DNA from: Myxococcales bacterium
GTDB lineage: Bacteria > Myxococcota > UBA727 > JABDBI01
DNA length: 64,000 nt
NCBI GenBank assembly: GCA_023898405.1
Contig: CP060221.1
Location: 1,719,381 to 1,783,380, forward strand
Direction of reading: 5' to 3'
In this document: piece by piece, positions 10,496 to 38,268 of the stretch
How the letters are laid out: every line of letters starts with the position of its first letter
Position numbering within the stretch: position 1 is the stretch's first letter
The notes under the pieces: generated by a model
Told to the model about the DNA's origin: nothing
The model's database searches: none
Seen by the model: only the letters and a program-made list of their open reading frames with translations
Translations under genes and position numbers: made by a program

Positions 10496-11413
10496 ATGAA
10501 AAATATAATAATTTTAACATGTTCGATCTGGTTTGCAACAAGTATTGCGTATGCAACCCAGATTAATTTTAAATTTATTGGTTTTGAACAATTTAGCAAA
10601 AATCCAGCACATAAGATTCTGGAAGTTAATTGTTCGAATAATACAACTACAACCATTGGAGATTTAAAAGAACAATTTTTTTATAGTTATAACATATCTC
10701 CTAGTGAAACCATTATCCTTATTGCCCACGAGAAATTAGAGGATTCAGCCCTTGTTTCAAGTGTAAACATAGCTATGCAAGGTGAAGTAATGGTTGTTAG
10801 GGATACAAGTGGCGGTATAAATTGTTTTAGTGAACACTATTCCAAACTTAAATCCGCTATTGAGGCTAATAATATAATCTACGCTGAAAATCTCTCACAT
10901 TCGATCGAACGTTCTCCAAATTTTTCAGACACTGAAAAGCGAATTGCAAAGAAATTGACTGAAAATCTATTGAAAATTAATAATAATTCAAACAATGAAT
11001 CGCCTGATGATGAATTAAGTAGGCTTTTGAATTTTATAGAGAAAAAAAATGTCATCAATTTAGATCCTGCTTTGCAAAAAATCTACAATAATTTTAAGCT
11101 CTGTATCGAGTATAGAAACGTTCAATCAGCTAAAACCATTATTAATTCAGCTAAAAATAATAAGTCCTTTTCCATTGAACAAAAAATAGAAATTGAAAGT
11201 TGGATGAATGGCAGCATTATTGAAAATAATTCAAACTTCCAGCCGCTCACTGAAAAAAATAAAACACAAATATTGTTAGAAAAATTTAATGATTTGAAAG
11301 AGAATAAAAGCAATGTTGATGAAGCAATCGATATTGCCTTACAGCTTTTAGATCAAGATGACTTAAACCTTATGGAAATGGAGAAGATTCGGGATTGGAT
11401 TAATTCAATCTAA
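10496..11413 (+). CDS. Hypothetical secreted protein
   Basis: 305-aa ORF with a signal-peptide-like N-terminus (MKNIIILTCSIWFATSIAYA), Asn/Ser-rich, no recognisable domain. Confidence 0.5.
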   Translation: MKNIIILTCSIWFATSIAYATQINFKFIGFEQFSKNPAHKILEVNCSNNTTTTIGDLKEQFFYSYNISPSETIILIAHEKLEDSALVSSVNIAMQGEVMVVRDTSGGINCFSEHYSKLKSAIEANNIIYAENLSHSIERSPNFSDTEKRIAKKLTENLLKINNNSNNESPDDELSRLLNFIEKKNVINLDPALQKIYNNFKLCIEYRNVQSAKTIINSAKNNKSFSIEQKIEIESWMNGSIIENNSNFQPLTEKNKTQILLEKFNDLKENKSNVDEAIDIALQLLDQDDLNLMEMEKIRDWINSI

Positions 11414-11499: not shown

Positions 11500-11800
11500 T
11501 TAACTTTCTCATCTTGCCAAGTGATAATGCCTATCTAAATGTAGGTTCAAGTTTGAATGTAGGAGTAAGCACCCAAGCGGCAGAACGCCTGAAAGGACAA
11601 AAGGGATTTGTACCACAGATATTTCGTTGGGCAGTTGAAAGAACTTTTGCTTGGTTGAATAGAAACCGGCGCCTGGTTCGTAACTATGAGAAGAGTACAA
11701 GGCAACAGGAATCAATGAACTACATCGCTCATGCAAGCTTGTGCATCAAGCGATTGGAAAAGTGGCTTACCGCCTAAATTTTGATTTATTTTACAGCCTC
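11500..11800 (+). mobile_element. Partial IS5-family element (3' ~300 bp), same family as the full copy at 28633..29537
   Basis: ORF 11514..11777 matches the C-terminal ~85 aa of the transposase at 28656..29471 (VGVST.AERLKGQKGFVPQIFRWAVERTFAWLNRNRRLVRNYEK). Terminal repeat TTTGATTTATTTTACAGCCTC ends at 11800, followed by TAA. Confidence 0.75.
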
Positions 11801-13685
11801 TAAATCATGATTCAGACAATATAAAATTTCCTTAGCGTACGTTTCCGTCCTAGCCTGAAAAAAATTTGTTCTCTTCTTCTAGACATTTACGACTGTGCTT
11901 ACTGCATAGTCCCCCCGGCCTGACGGTCGGGGGAGCGCTTAGAAATTATAATTTTTTAAAAAAATTCCAATCAAGGAGTCAGCAAACTCAAGGTTTAATT
12001 ACTTATAGTCGCCGTGAAATTTCTTAACCAAAACTTCCTTACGCATTATTATTGTTGTTATTGCCTTTATTGGATGAATGAATAATAACAATGTTTTCGC
12101 TTTCCGAAGCCTTCTCGCGCTTATCAAATAAATAACGAAGACGCTTCAACATTTCTGGTTTTTCAATTAAAACATTTTTTCCCATTGATACAAAATTATG
12201 CATTTTTTCCATCGCCGAGTGCCAATTAATTTCTGGATGAGCAGATATCACAGGATATTTTTTCCAGGATTGATGGAATTCTACTAGATTTTTTTGCAGG
12301 TCAACGGGAATAGTTGTCCATATCAGCACAAATTCTCTGGCAATCCTTAGAGCAAGAGCCTCTATATTTTTTTGAACTGATTTTTCTCTTACGATTCGAT
12401 GTATTACTGACTCTCCCCCATCATTTTGGTCTTGCAACAATTTCAATAGTGATTCTTCATCGGTATTAAAAATAGAATTAATCTGCTTTTCTGATAGCTG
12501 GTAAAGGACACTGTTTAAGATAATTAGCAGCTCTTCTATTAATACCCATTTAAGATCCTTATTAACAAACATCTGCAACACATTATAGCCAACTTCGTTT
12601 TTAGTAACTGATAGATTGTTTAACGATTGTTCAATAGACTCAGCATTATTTAAGTGTTCTGACATTGACTCAAAAAGTTGAGCTTTCTCTTCTTCTGACA
12701 ATTCATATGCCGCACTAATCGCTTTTTTTACTTTATTTTCAAATAGAAAAAACAAATAGCTCGCCATTTCATTTCTTGATATTTCATCTTGATTATTCAG
12801 TGCTATTCCAATTGGCCGAACATAGTTATCAAGAGAAAATAGATATGCCATTCCTGGCAATACACCATTGGCCTCAAAGCTCTCCAATATCTCTTGACGC
12901 TGGCCCTCTAGAAAGACTTTAACGACGTCAATTTTTCCCATACCGACTGCAATGGAAATAACAGAATTGCGATTTTGATCTTCTGCTGTTACATCAGCGC
13001 CATTATCCAAAAGAATTCGTACAATTTCTTGATCATCATTCGATCCATTTTTAAAATTAAGGACTGCAAATCCAAGCGGCGTTATACCTGATTTGCTAGG
13101 TTCATTAATGTTGAAATATTTTTTATTTCGATCATTTAAAAGTAATTCCATTGCGCGTTTTTGTTTTTTTAACGCAGTAAAATGAAGTGCGCTTAATCCC
13201 TTGTCAGTAGTTTTGGCACCGATATCAATTTTCGTATTGAGCAACAACAGCTGCAATTTATCTGTATCACTAAGCCCAGATGCTATGTGGATAGGACGAA
13301 TACCATTCTTTTGTATTGCTAAGTTGACATCAGCACCAACACTAATCAAGTGATTAGCGTAATAGTCATCATCTATTGTAAGTGCGTAATGCAGTAGTGA
13401 ATATCCCGCTAATGGGCTGTTTAGAACCTGTAGGAATTTTTCTTGATTGAATTTTGTTTCAATATAGTCAACCAATTTCTTGAACTCATTTTTCCTATTC
13501 TCTTTGATTGAGTAAAAAAGCACTTCTACATTGCTACTATTTTCGTTAGTCGGATCAAAAATGGTTTCTGGCCGATCCAGCAGATATTTCATAAGCTCCC
13601 AGCTTCCTGTTCTCATAGCTAAAAGCAATAATGTTTTGTCACATAGTTGAGGGCTTAAATTCTCAGGAGCACCTATTTTTTTGTT

Positions 13686-14401
13686 GGGGCTGTAGTAGCT
13701 AAGCCCAATTAAGGGTAAGCTACTTCAATGTATAAGAGACGCAGCCGTTTAACAGTGCGCCAGCAGAGCGAACTGATAAAATTATTTGTTGCTGGTGTAA
13801 CCGCCAGAGCAGCATCAGAACTGGTTATTATTCAATCTAATACAGCCAGTAATTTCTTCTTAAGGTTAAGAAAATTAATAGCCAGCAAACTTCCAAGCTA
13901 TGACTTAAGCGGAGAAATTGAAGTAGATGAAAGTTATTTTGGCGGAGTTCGAAAAGGCAAGAGAGGACGTGGAGCTGGAGGTAAAGTAGCTGTTTTTGGC
14001 CTTCTTAAGCGAGGTGGCAAGGTTTACACAGCCATCATTCCTAATGCAAAAACAGAAACTCTTCTGCCTATTGTAGAAGAGAAAGTTCTTCCGGACAGCA
14101 TAGTTTATACAGATACCTTTAAATCATATAATGCCTTAGATGTATCTGCATTTCACCATATGCGCATTAATCATTCCAAGCTGTTTGCTGATAAGCAAAA
14201 CCATATCAATGGGATTGAGAACTTCTGGAACCAAGCCAAACGCAATCTGCGTAAGTTTAATGGGATAAAACAGGATAATTTTTATTGGTTTCTTAAGGAA
14301 TGTGAATGGCGCTTCAACGGAGGCAATCACCAACAGCTTCTAAAACAGCTAAAATACTGGTATAAACACACTAAACATTAACGCTTAGCTACTACAGCCC
14401 C
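13686..14401 (+). mobile_element. IS1595-family insertion sequence, apparently intact
   Basis: Perfect 19-bp terminal inverted repeats GGGGCTGTAGTAGCTAAGC (13686..13704) and GCTTAGCTACTACAGCCCC (14383..14401), flanked by an 8-bp direct duplication TTTTTGTT (13678..13685 and 14402..14409). Confidence 0.85.
13728..14381 (+). CDS. IS1595-family transposase
   Basis: 217-aa ORF with the typical IS1595/ISXO2-like basic Gly-rich segment (DESYFGGVRKGKRGRGAGGKVAVFGLLKRGGKVYT) and C-terminal NHSKLFADKQNHINGIENFW region. Confidence 0.85.
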   Translation: MYKRRSRLTVRQQSELIKLFVAGVTARAASELVIIQSNTASNFFLRLRKLIASKLPSYDLSGEIEVDESYFGGVRKGKRGRGAGGKVAVFGLLKRGGKVYTAIIPNAKTETLLPIVEEKVLPDSIVYTDTFKSYNALDVSAFHHMRINHSKLFADKQNHINGIENFWNQAKRNLRKFNGIKQDNFYWFLKECEWRFNGGNHQQLLKQLKYWYKHTKH

Positions 14402-14969
14402 TTTTTGTTTATATGAACATAGTTTGGGTCAGCTGACGGCGCCAAATTAAAAAACATTTGCACATCAAAGGCATTATTTTTTACTTGCTGATCATTAATA
14501 TAGCTCTGAATAGCTTCAATTTTTTCCTCTGATTTAGCTTCGCCTTCTAAATGGGTAATCAACAATTCATATTCATTGGACTGTATTTCGTCGACGCCAG
14601 CAATTGAATGATGATCAATTTGATCTACATCACCACACCAAACTCTAACACAGCTAAAAAACAACGATAGAAAGCTTAAAAGCAGAACATTAAAACTCAT
14701 TTTATTTCCTATTTATATCTAATAAATTTCTCCTAGCACAACGCGCAAAATTATCAATAATTTATCTGGGCTCATCACATAAAAAACTGAAAAAATATAA
14801 GTGTAACATAAAAACCGCTTTATGGGTTCTAGAGCCTGCTCAAAACCTAAGCGCAAGGCCAAAAAATATCTTGACTGCCTGCACTGTAATAAAGCTTTCA
14901 CCTATAAAGCCCTCATTACTGTACTACGGCAAGGAGAAAATATAATATGGCCTCGCTTTCATTGTCTTA

Positions 14970-15290
14970 TCAGTTCAAAATTAAATTTTTAAGAACAAGA
15001 GTCTTCTCGCAAAAATAGATTACTTCTGAGTCCAAATGCACAAGCATGCGGTCGTGTTCAATTGCTTCAAAAATAAGCGCGTCCACGCATTGCGTCAGGC
15101 TTTCAACAGCTTTAAATATTATCTCGCCATCAACACTATAATTATAAAAAATTTCACCTGGAATTTCACCATTTACCAGCTGTTCGTCACCTTTCTCTTT
15201 TACTATTTTTAGTGGCTCAAGTGATTGAGCAAAAGCCAAATGAAAGGAAAATAATAATACTAATAAATATATCTTCTTCATGAATGCCAC
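14970..15290 (-). CDS. Hypothetical small secreted protein
   Basis: 106-aa ORF; internal Met gives signal peptide MKKIYLLVLLFSFHLAFAQS. No recognisable domain. Confidence 0.4.
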   Translation of the reverse strand: MAFMKKIYLLVLLFSFHLAFAQSLEPLKIVKEKGDEQLVNGEIPGEIFYNYSVDGEIIFKAVESLTQCVDALIFEAIEHDRMLVHLDSEVIYFCEKTLVLKNLILN

Positions 15291-15562
15291 CTAAATAGTT
15301 GTCAGTGTGCATGTTGTTTTCGTGATTAGAAATAATTAGTTGTTTATTGTTTTATGGGGAATATTGTTATTATTATTTTCATTGTTTTTATGTCTTTAAT
15401 TTACTGGTTAATTGTGGTGGTTCGCAACGCAGCGAACACCTAAGCTCGACTTTGGCCGAAATTGAAACGAATCGGTAGCTTCAAAAGAACAGAAGATTGG
15501 AATAAGCTGATCTACCCTCAAGAGCTGCCGAGAAATGAAAAGAGCACATCATAAAAGATTTC

Positions 15563-16007
15563 ATGAACAATTTTGCCGAATGCCTTAGTTCTCCTAGTCT
15601 GAGTCGGCTGAGTGAACTTCTTGCTGCAAGAATTATCACCATCGAAAAAACTACAGTCACGAACTTATCAAGGGTATTCGGCTTCGATCCCTACAACAGT
15701 CCCTGGCATCACCTATTTTCACGCTATCGAATCTCGCTTTGGGCATTATCATTTGTTCTTATAAAGTTGATTCGAAAGACTTTTGTTGCAGATGGACAAG
15801 CACGTTTTTGTTGTCGATGACACAAGGTGCTTGCATAACGGCAAAATTGTTTTTGGCAAGGCAAAGCATCGTGATGCCGCACGCTCATCTCATGCTGTTA
15901 CCACTTTGCTATGGGGACATACTCAAAATGCTCTTGAGCATAAGATTTTATCTTTGGAAGCCTCACCTATTTCAAAACAGTTTCTAAAGCTCATGATTGG
16001 TAATTAA
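15563..16007 (+). pseudogene. Possible degraded DDE transposase remnant (IS701/IS4-like), frameshifted
   Basis: Two overlapping short ORFs in different frames (15563..15820, 15783..16007); the second contains HVFVVDDTRCLHNGKIVFGKAKH resembling the first catalytic Asp region of IS701/IS4-type transposases. Weak. Confidence 0.3.
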
Positions 16008-17207
16008 CTTAAGGGCTTTCTGATATTCCGCGCTTTGTTTGGTGATCTCGGCTGCCTGCAACAAGAGATCTATAGTCTTTTCGGTTGTACTATCGAGTTC
16101 GGTAATTTCGGGATAGTTGGCATTATCAAGCAGGGTTTGAATGCGAATATAATGGGAACCTGGCAGGGATTCAAAGATATTTTCCATAGCTCCTTCGTCT
16201 TCATTTGATGAACCATCTATTAGGGCATCTATTACAGCTGGAGCCCATGTTGCCGCTCCAGCATTGAGTAAGCTTGAACCATTATGACTGTTGAGAACTC
16301 CCTTGCCAGTTCCAATAGAGACAAGAACAATCCCTCGACGTAAAATCTCAGCTCGGCCGAAAATCCTTTCAGCTTTGTCAAAAGCTAAAGGAGCAGGATT
16401 ATTTTTGTAGATGCCGCCATCTATGAGAAATGCTTGGTAAGGCCGATTGTTTGAGTTTATGAGAGTTACTTCCTTGGGAATAAAAAAGGTGGGTGCCGCC
16501 GAAGTGGCGCGTGCAACTTCAAGCACATTAAGGTGTGAAAATTTGGCATTATCACTTTCCAAAGAAATACCTTGTTTTTCTTCTATAGAAAAAGTTGTGA
16601 GTAAAGTTGGTATGAGAGATTCAGAAAAAAGTTTTTTGCCAAAAGTTTTCTGTATGAGTGCTTCCATGGACAAAGCATCATAGAGGGGTCCTCGCAAACT
16701 GCAGACGGTTTTAGGTATTAAATTTGAACAGCTGTATTTAAAAATTAAACGAGCATTATCTTTATAAAATTTTTCAGCCTCTTTTACCGTCAGTGGCAGC
16801 TTGTCTTTTGAAAGAGGCATGGTGAGCAGTAAGGAGAGTAATCCTCCTGTAGATGTTCCTGCAATAAGATCAAAGAGCTCGTATATTCTTTTATCAGAGA
16901 CCTGTTCAAACTTTTGTAAGAGTCTTGCAAGAAGAACGCCGCGTATACCTCCACCATCAAGGCTTAATACCTTTATTGGGTTTAGTTTTTGGTTTTCGTA
17001 ATTTTCATCGGGAGCTTCAAGTCCTTCAGTCTCGTTTGCGATAGGTTTTTCAACAGGTGTGAACTTTTTAACTTCTTGGCTGCTTTTAGAGCCGTTTTTA
17101 GGCTGATCGACAAAGGAGTTGGGGGCATCACTGCATGATGAAACGATAAGAGTTTGAAATAAAAAACAGGATAAAAAAACTGTGAAAAATAAATTATTTG
17201 ATTTCAT
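15984..17207 (-). CDS. Patatin-like phospholipase, secreted/lipoprotein
   Basis: 407 aa; oxyanion motif LDGGGIRG, nucleophile motif AGTSTGG, catalytic Asp motif IDGGIYKNNP; N-terminal signal peptide with a lipobox-like LIVSSCS. Confidence 0.85.
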   Translation of the reverse strand: MKSNNLFFTVFLSCFLFQTLIVSSCSDAPNSFVDQPKNGSKSSQEVKKFTPVEKPIANETEGLEAPDENYENQKLNPIKVLSLDGGGIRGVLLARLLQKFEQVSDKRIYELFDLIAGTSTGGLLSLLLTMPLSKDKLPLTVKEAEKFYKDNARLIFKYSCSNLIPKTVCSLRGPLYDALSMEALIQKTFGKKLFSESLIPTLLTTFSIEEKQGISLESDNAKFSHLNVLEVARATSAAPTFFIPKEVTLINSNNRPYQAFLIDGGIYKNNPAPLAFDKAERIFGRAEILRRGIVLVSIGTGKGVLNSHNGSSLLNAGAATWAPAVIDALIDGSSNEDEGAMENIFESLPGSHYIRIQTLLDNANYPEITELDSTTEKTIDLLLQAAEITKQSAEYQKALKLITNHEL

Positions 17208-17531: not shown

Positions 17532-18755
17532 ATGAACAATTCCAATTCCCTCCAACTTAAAAGAGTAATCACTCTTTATGCTATGGGTTTTTTGTTGATT
17601 TTTGGCTATTCTTTTGCTCGGCCTTGTATCGATTCCATTTACCTTGAGCATTATTCCAGTGACACATTGCCAAATGCTTGGTTGCTTACGGCTTTTTTGT
17701 CCGCGTTCGTAATAGCCATTTATAATCGTATCAATCAGCGATATTCGATTCTCTCGCTTTATGGTTGGCTTTCCCTTCTCTGTGCAGGAAGTTTGGCTCT
17801 ACTTTTGGCTGCCTATTTTTGGGGTTTCATTCCTGCAATTTTTATTCTCTATGTCTGGAAAGAAATTTACATGGTGGTTTTGGTCGAAACCTATTGGAGT
17901 TTTGCTGACATGGTTTTTTCCATAAGTTCAGCTCGTCACACCTATGGTTTGGCTATGGCCGTCAGTTCGCTTGGTGGGGTATTTGGCAATTTAATTGTAG
18001 GTCCTTTTGCGCGAACTGTCGGATCAAGATGGGCCCTTTGGTCATTGGTATTTTTGCTGATATTAGGATTTTTTATTGCCTATTGCGCGCGATCCATTGG
18101 CGATGAAAAACCACAAGAATCTAAAAAAACTGCAAAGATGGGAGTTGGCATTAAGACCTTGCTTCAGAGCAGGTATTTGGTTCCTCTGGCTTTGTTGGTG
18201 TGCACAGTTCAGGTAGTGACGGGCTTAATCGATTTTAAATTCAACTCGATGTTGCAGGAAAATTACGTCAATACGGATATGCGCACTGAAATGCTTGGCT
18301 ATATTCATGCAACGGTAAATGTTGTGGGGATTGCTATTCAATTGTGTACCGGCCCGATACTCAAGTTATTCGGTATTGCTTCGACTTTTAAGAGTATTCC
18401 TTTTCTATTGGCGGCCTGTCTTTTGGCATTTGTGATTCTGCCTAAATTTGCTTTGATGTTGGCGGTGAAAATTAGTAGTAAGGCTTTGGATTATTCTTTG
18501 TTGAGGGGAGTTAAAGAAATTTTATATATTCCCCTGTCTCGAGAAGAAAAAACCCAGGGCAAGGGGATAATAGATATTTTTATCTATCGTATAGCCAAAG
18601 GTCTTTCTTCGATTTTACTGCTCAGCTTGATTGCCATTGGTTTGAGTGCATATGTTATAGAGCTGTCTTTTGCTTTGGTTGTTATCTGGTTGATACTTGC
18701 CATCGTTATTGCTCGACGCTATCAATTATTGGTGGGTGCTGACGAAAATAGGTGA
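17532..18755 (+). CDS. TLC-family (ATP:ADP antiporter / nucleotide transporter-like) membrane protein, putative
   Basis: 407 aa polytopic membrane protein; C-terminal region KALDYSLLRGVKEILYIPLSREEKTQGKGIIDIFIYRIAKG resembles the TLC/NTT signature (AYIPLD...KGKAAIDVVGGRLGKSG). Shorter than canonical ~500-aa NTTs; substrate unknown. Confidence 0.5.
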   Translation: MNNSNSLQLKRVITLYAMGFLLIFGYSFARPCIDSIYLEHYSSDTLPNAWLLTAFLSAFVIAIYNRINQRYSILSLYGWLSLLCAGSLALLLAAYFWGFIPAIFILYVWKEIYMVVLVETYWSFADMVFSISSARHTYGLAMAVSSLGGVFGNLIVGPFARTVGSRWALWSLVFLLILGFFIAYCARSIGDEKPQESKKTAKMGVGIKTLLQSRYLVPLALLVCTVQVVTGLIDFKFNSMLQENYVNTDMRTEMLGYIHATVNVVGIAIQLCTGPILKLFGIASTFKSIPFLLAACLLAFVILPKFALMLAVKISSKALDYSLLRGVKEILYIPLSREEKTQGKGIIDIFIYRIAKGLSSILLLSLIAIGLSAYVIELSFALVVIWLILAIVIARRYQLLVGADENR

Positions 18756-26680: not shown

Positions 26681-28243
26681 ATGAACACACAATTTATCTT
26701 GTGGTCATCTATTTTATCCATTTTTTTTTCTTTTCTCGTACATGCTGAGAAGAGCCTTAGTTTTGAGCCGGATCATTATATTAGCTATGATATCAAGGCG
26801 AGAAATGGCCATTGGCAGATGGTTAATTTAAGAGACCAGTTTTTGGAGCCGACTGATTTTTTGGTTAGGGGGCCGATCAAGTATTTGAATCCCACTCTCA
26901 AAAGACACAATAATCAGGTTTTTGAGATAAAAAATAAAAAGCTTCATTATGCTGCATACGAAGTATTTCCTGAATCCAATTATGACATCAATGAAACGGT
27001 TGTGGTTCATAATCAATTTGGCAGCTTTACTTTTGATGCTTTCAAGCCCAGCAGATTACTTGTGCCATCGATTAAGTCGCATATTTTTAAAGGTAAAAAA
27101 GATCGAAAAATTCTTGAAAACAGTGACCACTACCTTTGTTACGATATAAAACCTGAGCTGATTGTAACTGAGGGCGGATATTTGAAAGATGAATTTAGAG
27201 GAAGATCTTTTGATACCTTGATTGCAAAAAGATTATGCAATCCCGTAGCCAAACGACATGACGATAAATATTTTGACATAATAAATGATGTTGAGACGAA
27301 CCATTTGATGTGTTTTGAGCTCAGTAAAAAAAGAATCTTTCGTCTACTGCACTTCAAAAATCAATTTGGATTTAGATTTGCTGCTGCACTGAATGATGAA
27401 GAGCTATGTGTGCCTTCGACTAAAATAAAAATCAGAAAAAAATGCGAAGATCAAGTACCTGATTCCGCAGGTATATGCGGAGGCGACTGCCCTGTTGCAA
27501 CCGACTTATGTATTTATATTCCTGAAACCAATGAGTGTGGTTGTGCTCCAGAACAACCGCGATTTTGTGAAGACAATACACCAGATCCTCTTGGTGTATG
27601 CGGCGGAGATTGCCCCGATAATCTTGAATGTATAGCAGATCTAGCAAATCAAAGCTGTTATTGCAAAGAACCACCTAATCCATGTGGTTTAAATGCTGAT
27701 GGTCTGTGCGGAGGCGACTGCCCTGTTGCAACCGACTTATGTATTTATATTTCTGAAACCAATGAGTGTGGTTGTGCTCCAGAGCAACCGCGATTTTGTG
27801 AAGATAATACACCAGATCCTCTTGGTGTATGCGGCGGAGATTGCCCCGATAATCTTGAATGCATAGCAGATCTTAGCAGTCAAAGCTGTTATTGCAAAGA
27901 ACCACCTAATCCATGTGGTTTAAATGCTGACGGTCAGTGCGGAGGCGACTGCTTAGTTGCAAGTGAGATCTGTAGCTTTATTCCAGGAACAAATGAATGC
28001 GGTTGTGCTCCACAAGAACCATTGTTGTGTGAAGATAGTATTCCTGATTCAACCGGAATATGCGGCGGAGAATGTCCAAATAATTCAATATGCGCTCCCG
28101 ATTCAGTCAATCAAAAATGTTTTTGCCGACCGGTAATAGAAAGTTGTGGATTAAATGCCGAAGGTTTGTGTGGAGGAGATTGTTTAGATCCGAGTCAGAG
28201 CTGCACATTTATAATTGGTGCAGATATCTGCGCATGTCTCTAA
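26681..28243 (+). CDS. Secreted Cys-rich tandem-repeat protein (hypothetical)
   Basis: 520 aa; signal peptide; N-terminal half has two related ~110-aa segments (DHYISYDIKARNG... / DHYLCYDIKPELIV...); C-terminal half is 3.5 tandem 77-aa Cys-rich units built on a CGGDCP...C...NxCxC module. RBS AGGGGGAG upstream. Confidence 0.7.
   Translation: MNTQFILWSSILSIFFSFLVHAEKSLSFEPDHYISYDIKARNGHWQMVNLRDQFLEPTDFLVRGPIKYLNPTLKRHNNQVFEIKNKKLHYAAYEVFPESNYDINETVVVHNQFGSFTFDAFKPSRLLVPSIKSHIFKGKKDRKILENSDHYLCYDIKPELIVTEGGYLKDEFRGRSFDTLIAKRLCNPVAKRHDDKYFDIINDVETNHLMCFELSKKRIFRLLHFKNQFGFRFAAALNDEELCVPSTKIKIRKKCEDQVPDSAGICGGDCPVATDLCIYIPETNECGCAPEQPRFCEDNTPDPLGVCGGDCPDNLECIADLANQSCYCKEPPNPCGLNADGLCGGDCPVATDLCIYISETNECGCAPEQPRFCEDNTPDPLGVCGGDCPDNLECIADLSSQSCYCKEPPNPCGLNADGQCGGDCLVASEICSFIPGTNECGCAPQEPLLCEDSIPDSTGICGGECPNNSICAPDSVNQKCFCRPVIESCGLNAEGLCGGDCLDPSQSCTFIIGADICACL
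27466..28158 (+). repeat. Three in-frame 231-bp tandem repeats (units 1 and 2 about 96% identical, unit 3 diverged) inside CDS 26681..28243
   Basis: GCGGAGGCGACTGCC recurs at 27477, 27708 and 27939 (period 231 bp); units 1 and 2 differ at about 9 positions. Confidence 0.85.
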
Positions 28244-28370: not shown

Positions 28371-28404
28371 AAAAAAGATTCCTAAGTACTTAGGAATCTT
28401 TTTT
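28371..28404. terminator. Bidirectional rho-independent terminator
   Basis: A-tract, perfect palindrome AGATTCCTAAGT/ACTTAGGAATCT, then T-tract (AAAAAAGATTCCTAAGTACTTAGGAATCTTTTTT). Confidence 0.65.
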
Positions 28405-28632
28405 GAAACCAAAGGTAGTACTTTAGCTGTAAAATTTCGTGAGTGAAAATTATCTATTCGAGAGCTTTGTGAGTAAATCCATCCATAGATTACGTGTCAA
28501 TAAGTGCACTCATGAGATAATACTTGAGGCCAATGATACTCTGCTTGGTGTTTTGCGATATCGTCTTGACTTGATTGGCACCAAGCAAGGATGTGACAAA
28601 GGTGACTGTGGAGCATGTACGGTGCTTCTTAA

Positions 28633-29537
28633 GAGGCTGTAAAAAAAATCAAATCTCAGGTGGTAAGCCAATTTTCCAATCGTCTGATACATAATCTTGC
28701 ATTAGCGATGTAGTTCATTGATTCCTGATGCTTTGTATTCTTCTCATAGTTACGCACCAGACGCCTATTTCGATTCAGCCAAGCAAAAGTTCGTTCTACG
28801 GCCCAACGAAATATTTGTGGTACAAACCCCTTTTGCCCTTTTAAACGTTCCGCAGTTTCTGTGCTTACGCCTACTCTCAAGCCTGAAGACAAATTCTTAT
28901 ATGCGTTATCTCCAAGAATCTTCGCTAATCTGGGAAACTTCTCGCGCTTATTGAGCTCAGTAACCAATTCCTCGCCGGCAACCCTATCAGATACATTTGC
29001 TGCGGTACAAATGCATAGGAGCATCAATCCCATCGTATCAACAACGATGTGGCGCTTTCTTCCATTAATCTTCTTTCCCCCATCCAAACCACGCTCATCT
29101 ACTCCTGGTTCCGCTGTCTGTGATTGGGAGTCGATGGAAACAAGTGAGGGGCTTGCATCTCTGCCAGCACAGGTTCTGACTATTGCCACGAGAATGCAGT
29201 TTAAGACCGCCCACAAACCAGAAACAGACCAGGTGCGAAAATAGTGATAGACAATACCGTGAGGAGGAAAGTCATTGGGTAAACAACGCCACACACAGCC
29301 GTTCTTTAAAACATAGAATATGGCATCAACTATGCTCCGAAAGCTATAGACACGACGTCTGCCTCGTTTGGCGTTAGCAGGAAAAAGTGGCTCAATCACT
29401 TCCCAGGCACAATCTGACAAACAGGTCTCATACAAGCACGACATGATATTTCCTTTCAAAAAGGTTTTCACGTCATACTTTCGTCACAGCGACATTTATT
29501 GAACCAGAATTGCCAAATTGATTTTTTTTACAGCCTC
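28633..29537 (-). mobile_element. IS5-family insertion sequence (IS1031-like, ~905 bp), apparently intact
   Basis: Perfect 20-bp terminal inverted repeats GAGGCTGTAAAAAAAATCAA (28633..28652 and reverse complement at 29518..29537), flanked by a 3-bp direct repeat TAA (28630..28632 and 29538..29540). Single transposase ORF. Confidence 0.9.
28656..29471 (-). CDS. IS5-family DDE transposase
   Basis: 271-aa ORF filling the element, with conserved C-terminal block AERLKGQKGFVPQIFRWAVERTFAWLNRNRRLVRNYEK shared with the remnant at 11514..11777. Confidence 0.9.
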   Translation of the reverse strand: MKTFLKGNIMSCLYETCLSDCAWEVIEPLFPANAKRGRRRVYSFRSIVDAIFYVLKNGCVWRCLPNDFPPHGIVYHYFRTWSVSGLWAVLNCILVAIVRTCAGRDASPSLVSIDSQSQTAEPGVDERGLDGGKKINGRKRHIVVDTMGLMLLCICTAANVSDRVAGEELVTELNKREKFPRLAKILGDNAYKNLSSGLRVGVSTETAERLKGQKGFVPQIFRWAVERTFAWLNRNRRLVRNYEKNTKHQESMNYIANARLCIRRLENWLTT

Positions 29538-29903
29538 TAATGGAAAACCTGTTTTATCGTGTCTTACGCTTGCTCAATTAATAAATGACTCGGATGATAT
29601 TTCTACTATCGAAAGCCTAGCAGAGAACAAAGGAATAGATATTTTGCTCGAAGCTTTTGAAGAGTGTGGCGCTTTGCAGTGCGGTTTTTGTCAGCCAGGA
29701 ATGATTTTATCGGCTAAAGCTTTACTCAGTAAAAATCATGCGCCTAGTCTTGAAGAAATTCGCCAAGCACTAAGCGGCAACCTATGCAGATGTACTGGCT
29801 ATAGTAAAATCTACATGGCAGTTATGGCAGCCGTATTGGTGAAAAACAAAAAAGTAGATTCACTCAAAGAAGCGATTGCTCAGCTAAAAAACGAAAATTA
29901 TCT

Positions 29904-36261: not shown

Positions 36262-36360
36262 AGCTTGAGGCATCATATAAAAATTTCCTATGATTTAATT
36301 GGTTTAAAGCATGGACTTCGAGATTTTATTCGAGAGAGCATTGCATATACCAATCCCATA

Positions 36361-36438
36361 AATTAACTGAGCTTTTAATTTCTTCCTGGTCCTCGCTTTG
36401 CTGCGGGTGTTCAGAAATTAAAGGCTCAGTTAAATTCT
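36361..36438. repeat. Palindromic ~80-bp repeat element, copy 1 (inverted relative to copy 2)
   Basis: TTAACTGAGC...GCTCAGTTAA terminal 10-bp inverted repeats around a core containing TGCTGCGGGTGTTCAGAAATTAAA; the reverse complement matches the copy at 38105..38186 at about 85% over ~60 nt. Confidence 0.6.
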
Positions 36439-36457: not shown

Positions 36458-37879
36458 CTAGCACGTTTCTTCTGTATTTTGCACGTTGACACCTTGGTCA
36501 GCTGAGGATGCTGAGCGATTGAGCAGACTATTTTTATAGCCGTAGAAAGCATAGATCATTATTCCTGCCACCATCCATACGATGAATCTTAACCATGTTT
36601 CAGCGGGCAGGCTCACCATTAGATAGAGGCAAAAAATAATTCCCATAACGGGGATGAAAGGGTGAAATCCAAGTTTAAAAGGTCTGTGCATTTCAGGCTT
36701 ACTTATTCTTAGAACGATCACTCCGCTGCACACGAGAATAAATGCGGCAAGTGTGCCAATGTTGACCATCTCCGCAAGTTTACCAATAGGAGTTAGTCCT
36801 GCGATGATGGACATAAAAACACCGCTAAGCATGATGATGGAGACAGGAGTTTTTGTTTTTGGATGGACTTTGGCAAAGCGCTGCGAGAGCAATCCATCCC
36901 GAGAAATAGCTAAGAATATTCGCGAGAATCCATAGTAGAGAACCAGCATCACTGTAGTGAGACCTGCAATGGCTCCTGCAGAAATAAAGCCTGCAGCAAT
37001 CGGGTGATCGAGGTTAAGTAAAACTTCCGCTACCGGAGATTTAACATTCAATGATGTGTAAGGAACTATCAGGGTGAGTAGGGCCGATACCATCATGTAA
37101 ATTGCTGTGCAGACAAAGAGAGATACAATAATTCCTATGGGAAGATTTTTTTGTGGGTTAATGGTTTCTTCTGCGGCGGTTGAAACAGCATCAAACCCAA
37201 TGTAAGCAAAAAATACCAAAGCTGCACCCTGCATTACTCCATGCCAGCCAAAAGGCATAAAACTTTGCCAGTGTTGTCCATCGACGTGAGTAAAAGAAAC
37301 ACCAATAAATGTTGCAATAGCTAAAAGTTTGACGAATACAATCACGGTGTTAAAGCGCGTACTTTCACGGGTACCAATGCTTAATAAAACAGCAAGTAGC
37401 AATATAATGAGAGAAGCTGGTAAATCGATGATGCCACCTTCAAAAAAGTTTTTACTAAGAGCTACGGGAAGCGATATTCCCATGGAAGCTAAGGCATTTG
37501 AAACATAGCCCGACCAGCCGATAGCAACAGTAGAAATACCAAGCCCATATTCAAGCAACAAATCCCACCCGATGATCCAAGCGATAAATTCGCCGAGTCC
37601 AGCATAGGCATAGCCATATGCACTTCCGCATCCACCAATGCTTGCGGCCAATTCCGCATAAGAAAGTGCTACAAAAACACAGGCAAGACCAGCCACAATA
37701 TAGCTTAAAATAATTGCAGGGCCTGCGCTGGTTGCGGCTACAACACCGGTTATCACAAAGATACCAGCGCCAATAATTGCCCCTACTCCTAAAAATGTTA
37801 CATCCATTGCACCGAGACAGCGTTTTAATGATCCTTCACCGTCGGTGGAACCAATAGGTTTTGTTCGCAAAAGACTCAT
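36458..37879 (-). CDS. APC-family amino acid permease
   Basis: 473 aa, ~12 predicted TM segments, typical APC N-terminal signature (FLGVGAIIGAGIFVITGVVAATSAGPAIILSYIVAGLACVFVALSYAELA). Confidence 0.9.
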   Translation of the reverse strand: MSLLRTKPIGSTDGEGSLKRCLGAMDVTFLGVGAIIGAGIFVITGVVAATSAGPAIILSYIVAGLACVFVALSYAELAASIGGCGSAYGYAYAGLGEFIAWIIGWDLLLEYGLGISTVAIGWSGYVSNALASMGISLPVALSKNFFEGGIIDLPASLIILLLAVLLSIGTRESTRFNTVIVFVKLLAIATFIGVSFTHVDGQHWQSFMPFGWHGVMQGAALVFFAYIGFDAVSTAAEETINPQKNLPIGIIVSLFVCTAIYMMVSALLTLIVPYTSLNVKSPVAEVLLNLDHPIAAGFISAGAIAGLTTVMLVLYYGFSRIFLAISRDGLLSQRFAKVHPKTKTPVSIIMLSGVFMSIIAGLTPIGKLAEMVNIGTLAAFILVCSGVIVLRISKPEMHRPFKLGFHPFIPVMGIIFCLYLMVSLPAETWLRFIVWMVAGIMIYAFYGYKNSLLNRSASSADQGVNVQNTEETC

Positions 37880-38104: not shown

Positions 38105-38186
38105 AGAAATTAACCAAGCTTTTAATTTCTGAACACCCGCAGCACAGCAAGGCCTAGGAATAGATTAAAGGCTTGGTTAATTTCTG
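38105..38186. repeat. Palindromic ~80-bp repeat element, copy 2
   Basis: TTAACCAAGC...GCTTGGTTAA terminal inverted repeats around core TTTAATTTCTGAACACCCGCAGCACAGCAAGG; related to copy 1 in opposite orientation. Confidence 0.6.
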
Positions 38187-38268
38187 GGGGTGGTATAGCA
38201 ACTCTACACGCCTTGAAAACAGCGAATGCTTTAGTAGTATCAGTGCTGTTGTTAAATAAGGTAAAATT

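Follow-up and report, generated by a model that had tools for sequence, protein, structure and literature searches.

Elements of the IS1016 subgroup within the IS1595 family of insertion sequences (IS) are about 700-745 bp long (ISfinder). The described members ISApl4, ISEc75, ISEc69 and ISAba36 measure about 700-730 bp and have a single transposase gene of about 215 amino acids occupying the whole element, and the hosts of the subgroup are Gammaproteobacteria or Neisseria. The transposase signature given in the ISApl4 paper of 2025 is E-DESYFG(53)VYTD----Y(24)HINGIENFWSQAK(14)LFIKECEFRFN, and the target duplications of the subgroup are 7-9 bp long, by preference 8 bp and A/T-rich (PMC12561309). 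A comparable host gene is known from Wolbachia wAu, where a mobile element splits the ankyrin-repeat gene WD0385 (PMC4223829). Here we analyzed a 64-kb stretch of contig CP060221.1 from an uncultured bacterium labelled Myxococcales (the whole stretch is called the window below) and detected an IS1016-type element at 13686..14401 which has probably, at about 0.9 by our estimate from the sequence, disrupted one pre-existing gene of 645 codons encoding an ankyrin-repeat protein.

The element (13686..14401, plus strand) is 716 bp long and is bounded by perfect 19-bp inverted repeats. The left inverted repeat, IRL (GGGGCTGTAGTAGCTAAGC, 13686..13704, plus strand), is the exact reverse complement of the right one, IRR (14383..14401, minus strand), and the complementarity ends beyond 19 bp. 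The 8-bp target-site duplication TTTTTGTT was found directly outside both repeats, the left copy at 13678-13685 next to IRL and the right copy at 14402-14409 next to IRR. Both the inverted repeats and the direct repeat had been proposed in the initial annotation of this DNA and were confirmed. With up to three mismatches tolerated, the 19-bp repeat matches the window at these two sites only, against 0.01 chance matches expected; a second copy of the IS was not found within the window. The one open reading frame (ORF) between the inverted repeats is the transposase gene (13728..14381, plus strand, 217 amino acids, USN50172.1), antisense to the interrupted gene. Its product matched Pfam DDE_Tnp_IS1595 (PF12762; 1.4e-32, 113 bits, cut-off 27) and NCBIfam transpos_IS1595 (NF033547; 6.3e-47, 160 bits, cut-off 75, profile positions 2-213 of 215).

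The window transposase reads EVDESYFG, 53 amino acids, VYTDTFKSY, 24 amino acids, HINGIENFWNQAK, 14 amino acids and YWFLKECEWRFN, the spacings being counted on the sequence (DESYFG(53)VYTD----Y(24)HINGIENFWNQAK(14)..KECEWRFN), and all of them are those quoted for IS1016 elements. The catalytic signature common to the window element and the named members, with identical spacings, is E-DESYFG(53)VYTD----Y(24)HINGIENFW.QAK(14)..KECE.RFN. The single transposase gene filling the element, the 8-bp A/T-rich target duplication and the GGGGCTGT terminus are likewise shared; this terminus is common to the window IS, ISEc75, a Psychrobacter IS and ISEc69. The repeats start GGGGCTGTAG in the window IS, GGGGCTGTCC in ISEc75 and the Psychrobacter element and GGGGCTGTAC in ISEc69, differing beyond GGGGCTGT. 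Its 716 bp place the window IS within the size range of the subgroup, close to ISEc75 with 717 bp and to the Psychrobacter element with 699 bp, whose 8-bp duplications are ATTATCTA and AAAAATTA; it also has the single ORF of the subgroup and terminal inverted repeats that start with GGGGCTG. The domain matches, the signature and the termini and 8-bp duplications of the relatives bear out the IS1595-family identity suggested earlier. Unlike these likenesses, protein identity is limited: the closest plasmid-borne transposases (tblastn, 72,556 plasmids) are 56-66% identical and comprise ISEc75-, ISAba36- and ISEc69-types (63%, 57% and 56% identity to the named elements, respectively) and unnamed IS1595-family genes. 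The host also differs, being labelled Myxococcales/Myxococcota and not gammaproteobacterial or neisserial. On these sequence comparisons the window IS is a complete, previously unnamed IS1016-subgroup member of the IS1595 family, and since its protein identity to the closest elements is so low, a new name is due; the element merits its own name within the subgroup.

Deletion of positions 13686-14409 produced a minus-strand ORF of 1938 nt, 645 codons running from 14700 to 12039, in frame and stop-free, with the insertion point within codon 100. Because the duplication is intact, the pre-insertion sequence must have held this continuous ORF. The 5' fragment of the interrupted gene (14402..14700, minus strand, H6731_07845) holds codons 1-99 and the first two bases of codon 100; the third position of this codon is now filled by IS base 14401. 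The ORF of 102 amino acids annotated there (14700..14392, minus strand; USN50173.1, hypothetical protein H6731_07845) ends ...HINKK-GL-stop, and its Gly and Leu codons, the third base of its Lys codon (14401) and its TAG (14392-14394) come from IRR, in agreement with the proposal that the stop of the upstream ORF lies inside the IS repeat. The 3' fragment (12039..13685, minus strand) holds codons 98-645 with the retained left copy of the duplication, and the stop; it is annotated as an ankyrin protein of 529 amino acids with a TTG start at 13628 (USN50171.1). The in-frame fusion of the 102-codon and 529-codon ORFs upon removal of the IS, also claimed initially, was thus reproduced.

Followed backwards from TTG 13628, the ankyrin ORF frame meets no stop in the duplication and stays open into the IS. 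The 57-nt segment between the IS and this TTG (19 codons) is open only in the ORF frame, with two stops in each of the other frames, and a 19-codon stretch was stop-free in about 25% of local-sequence shuffles. Two unrelated genes would then give a junction that is in frame and stop-free with a chance of about 1/3 x 0.25 = 0.08, close to the roughly 10% estimated before. ATG 14700 is the first start past the upstream stop, and a Shine-Dalgarno-like AGGA (14707..14710, minus strand), read from the sequence, lies 6 nt upstream of it, whereas no purine-rich ribosome-binding site was found before TTG 13628 or before the ATG four codons on. TTG 13628 corresponds to amino acid 117 of the restored protein, whereas the first Pfam ankyrin match (amino acids 114-137) opens 3 residues earlier, at amino acid 114; the annotated TTG start truncates this first repeat. 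The chance of 0.08 is reduced further by several features: no native stop ends the first ORF, its start and leader are proper, the second ORF has no credible start, and the start annotated for the latter truncates the first repeat. The restored ORF, the AGGA with the ATG and the repeat spanning the TTG start together support the claim that the IS inserted inside an ankyrin-repeat gene.

The ankyrin-repeat region was defined by Pfam matches at amino acids 114-357 of the restored protein (12906..13637, minus strand), with scores of 73.9 bits for Ank_2 (cut-off 27.3, 1.6e-20), 54.5 for Ank (cut-off 21.1, 8.7e-15), 47.1 for Ank_4 (cut-off 22.7) and 44.1 for Ank_3 (cut-off 22.3), the best Ank_3 stretch being the first repeat named above. 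The N-terminus, MSFNVLLLSFLSLFFSCVRVWCG, is hydrophobic and resembles a signal peptide or lipoprotein-type leader, as read from the sequence, and the ankyrin protein may have been exported. The predicted build of the protein is probably a signal-like N-terminus, about 240 residues of ankyrin repeats and a predicted-helical C-terminal domain of about 290 residues. A single-sequence structure model of the 548-residue 3' part reached a predicted local distance difference test score (pLDDT) of 39.5, unusable for a fold search; its first helix begins 8 residues ahead of the annotated TTG start. A role as a eukaryotic-like candidate effector is a guess.

According to the proposed mechanism, an IS1016-type element would have transposed into codon 100 of one 645-codon gene, duplicating the A/T-rich TTTTTGTT. 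Translation from the native start would now end after 100 native residues and Gly-Leu, at the TAG in the IS repeat, and the ankyrin and C-terminal part would be left devoid of a promoter, a ribosome-binding site and an export signal. The 645-codon ORF would once have been a single expressed gene, and the interrupted gene is most likely inactivated.

The transposase occurs in at least four separately accessioned identical copies in the contig of 2,515,055 bp (USN50172.1, USN50248.1, USN50531.1 and USN51088.1), and an exact look-up found the protein on 18 short metagenome contigs. Flanks were compared on 8 of these 18. In all 8 the 716 bp are 100% identical, with 0 mismatches, and with the window copy counted the left flanks are of at least 5 kinds and the right flanks of at least 6, all A/T-rich. 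A second 8-bp duplication, TAAATATA, could be paired between contigs L008 and L007, inferred across the two contigs; left and right flanks are mostly unpaired on single contigs, as expected where short-read assemblers collapse a repeat. The element is, by this comparison, multi-copy and recently transposed. The perfect repeats, the intact transposase and the identical copies at other A/T-rich sites suggest that transposition is probably continuing and the element still active. The insertion into the ankyrin gene is likewise evolutionarily recent, as judged from the identical copies at several sites and from both gene halves being stop-free, which bears out the recent date assumed in the initial annotation.

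The two GenBank proteins, USN50173.1 and USN50171.1, could instead be two independent genes, a small secreted protein of 100 amino acids and an ankyrin protein whose start is TTG 13628 or an ATG four codons further on; the IS would then have hit the very end of the first gene or the spacer, and the junction would be coincidental. The junction chance of about 0.08 is not negligible, and the fused architecture was seen in no homologue, but upon excision the first ORF has no stop, so no separate gene of 100 amino acids is possible, the candidate ankyrin starts are devoid of a ribosome-binding site, and the TTG cuts into the first repeat. Two annotated proteins are also what any gene caller yields on either side of an IS, and we consider a coincidental junction between two genes very improbable. 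An error of assembly, with the repeated IS misplaced in the metagenome-assembled genome or its flanks joined chimerically, appears even harder to credit. Short-read contigs with the IS are chimeric across copies and leave left and right flanks unpaired, and scaffold L021 links the neighbourhood to a distant locus across another repeat, yet a matching 8-bp duplication and an exact 645-codon frame would not come from a chimeric join; together they tie the left flank to the right flank. The right junction was moreover found at 100% identity in two independent assemblies, with 445 and 289 bp of flank: a Logan contig from SRR15882951 is 100% identical to window 13684-14846, and an ENA contig from ERZ27309377 is identical from the IS to 14690.

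Insertion into a single gene could also be real and still have spared its function. An outward promoter in the IS end, or read-through, could restore expression of the ankyrin and C-terminal part as a cytoplasmic product minus the export signal, or the insertion could be polymorphic, with the gene still intact in many cells. Both halves are stop-free, the frame of the 3' part stays open for 16 codons into the IS with a stop in the 17th, and metagenome-assembled genomes represent a population consensus, all of which would fit such a case. Against it, no outward minus-strand promoter-like site was detected near the left IS end; the sole minus-strand promoter-like site in the IS, at 14306-14278, is about 600 bp from that end, the possible starts have no ribosome-binding site, and the empty-site sequence is absent from the Joint Genome Institute (JGI) metagenome contigs and the protein collections. 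A promoter and terminator scan of 11700-15400 gave no more sites than shuffled sequence. Retained function is in our view improbable, though less so than a pair of independent genes.

Searches for relatives returned little beyond the locus itself. With the 102-residue part as query, a full HMMER scan covering 1.84 billion representative proteins matched only the part itself (P0019, that is USN50173.1) and two highly repetitive, eukaryote-like repeat proteins; the latter were considered as homologues and, after reading them, judged spurious. The restored protein of 645 amino acids, in a word-indexed protein search, returned its own 529-residue part and generic ankyrin proteins at 23-39% identity. 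The C-terminal 286 amino acids had no match among PDB sequences and none in the word-indexed protein collection, the latter a weak negative as that search also missed the self protein. No relatives of the restored protein were found in the JGI metagenome contigs, where the 25-nt reconstructed empty site CACCTATTTTTTTGTTTATATGAAC also gave 0 matches. Among 185,579 species genomes there were 0 exact matches to the 19-bp repeat, indicating that the source genome is absent from that collection. Contigs of the same organism, found through exact products of neighbouring genes, end at flanking repeats.

Several of these points weigh against disruption of a single exported gene. Neither an uninterrupted allele nor an empty site was found in the protein collections, the JGI metagenome contigs or the contigs of the organism, no protein in the searches spans the junction, and the N-terminal 100 residues and the C-terminal domain have no homologue there. 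The word-indexed search missed identical known sequences (P0019 and P0001), so its negatives weigh little, and a negative that can be relied on comes from the HMMER scan alone. The N-terminus has no basic residue ahead of its hydrophobic stretch, the structure model is too poor at its pLDDT to show the N-terminal residues packing on the repeat stack, and loss of function is inferred only. Since the gene is an orphan, the lack of a junction-spanning homologue carries no weight against the single-gene reading; with both halves orphans and no uninterrupted allele, the case for disruption of one gene rests on evidence internal to the locus.

The locus resembles the Wolbachia case in that an ankyrin-repeat gene is split into separately annotated fragments (wMel WD0385 versus wAu WPWAU0423, WPWAU0426 and WPWAU0427; PMC4223829). 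The cases differ in that a Wolbachia sister strain supplies the intact allele, whereas here neither such an allele nor a homologue was found, and in the element, as IS5 elements are highlighted in the wAu paper (PMC4223829) and an IS1595-family element is found here. Wolbachia is also intracellular, whereas such a lifestyle of the present host is only hinted at.

Upstream of the interrupted gene, scaffold L021 (ENA ERZ28655569) matches window 18103-14853 at 100% and continues into unrelated DNA; the latter is a 100% match to H6731_01655, which belongs to the same genome. At the exact point where identity to the window begins, a Logan contig holding H6731_01655 in its native context ends, and other contigs of the organism stop at window 15599 and 15932. 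The segment from window ~14853 to 15599/15932 is accordingly repeated elsewhere in the genome, beside H6731_01655, and L021 is a join across this repeat. L021 had been considered as a strain lacking the ankyrin gene, in a strain-variable island; this was rejected, as it is joined exactly at the repeat boundary to H6731_01655 DNA of the same genome. The repeat (L021, L024) contains an ORF of 106 amino acids with a signal-like leader and about 650 bp in which no gene is recognisable, and short-read contigs break at its edges. At its boundary lies an ORF of 56 amino acids (window 14822-14992, plus strand; L021 3112-3282, minus strand) with a CxxC...HC pattern; its other copy keeps an ATG and the frame, with residues 3-11 differing and residues 12-56 identical, so that this ORF is possibly a genuine small gene. 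No Pfam match was obtained for the small ORFs at 15481-16007 and 11509-12027.

The window is chromosomal, with PolA, UvrC and RNase P RNA present, and its PolA is 62% identical to the closest one among species-representative genomes, from a 'Myxococcota bacterium' metagenome-assembled genome. Its G+C content is about 39%. An open frame of more than 2066 codons (window 1-6198, minus strand) extends beyond the left end and has a ketosynthase motif at its start; this large polyketide synthase is 3089 amino acids long in contig JAGQJM010000017.1 and adjoins fatty-acid hydroxylase and acyl-CoA dehydrogenase genes. Signal-like N-termini cluster around the ankyrin gene (region with ORFs 10496-11413, 14970-15290, 15984-17207 and 17532-18755): they belong to two orphan proteins (305 and 106 amino acids) and a patatin-like lipase that falls below the cut-off of the lipase model of the cyclic oligonucleotide-based antiphage signalling system (CBASS). 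A distant TLC/MFS-type transporter is encoded there as well. This transporter scores above the Pfam cut-off and far below that of NCBIfam for the TLC family (50 versus 387 bits). A class-3 lipase is also present in the window. These genes, the 2.5-Mb contig and the G+C content are weak hints of a host-associated lifestyle of the organism.

No paralogue of the interrupted gene was found within the window. Other repeated DNA includes an intact IS5-family element (28621-29549) with imperfect inverted repeats of 32 nt and a transposase of 271 amino acids (NF033580, 5.6e-54), and an 82% identical relic at 11523-11804, reduced to the 3' end of the transposase gene and situated downstream of the ankyrin gene, about 230 bp from its stop. 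A perfect 34-bp palindrome (28371-28404; AAAAAAGATTCCTAAGT and its complement) lies just outside the intact IS5-family element. Inverted repeats of 98 bp, 83% identical (36341-36438 and 38105-38201), bracket an amino-acid permease gene (36458-37879), and a tandem duplication with units of about 230 bp, 81% identical (27470-28212), lies inside the gene for a DUF7450 repeat protein (26681-28243).

Taken together, these results call for H6731_07845 (102 amino acids) and USN50171.1 (529 amino acids) to be joined in the annotation as a single 645-codon pseudogene, with a flag for the interrupting IS. The event itself would be an ordinary gene knock-out, one more case of insertion sequences inactivating repeat-protein genes, by a multi-copy element of an uncultured lineage in which it is probably active, and as such it raises no new question. 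Myxococcota is a phylum noted for very large free-living genomes. A wider hypothesis, drawn from one insertion, a minimum copy number and the lifestyle hints, and which we regard as unlikely, is that the insertion belongs to an ongoing burst in which identical IS1016-type copies turn exported, eukaryote-like (ankyrin) genes into pseudogenes, as early reductive evolution; if true, this would be taking place in a possibly host-associated bacterium labelled Myxococcota with a small genome (2.5 Mb, ~39% G+C).

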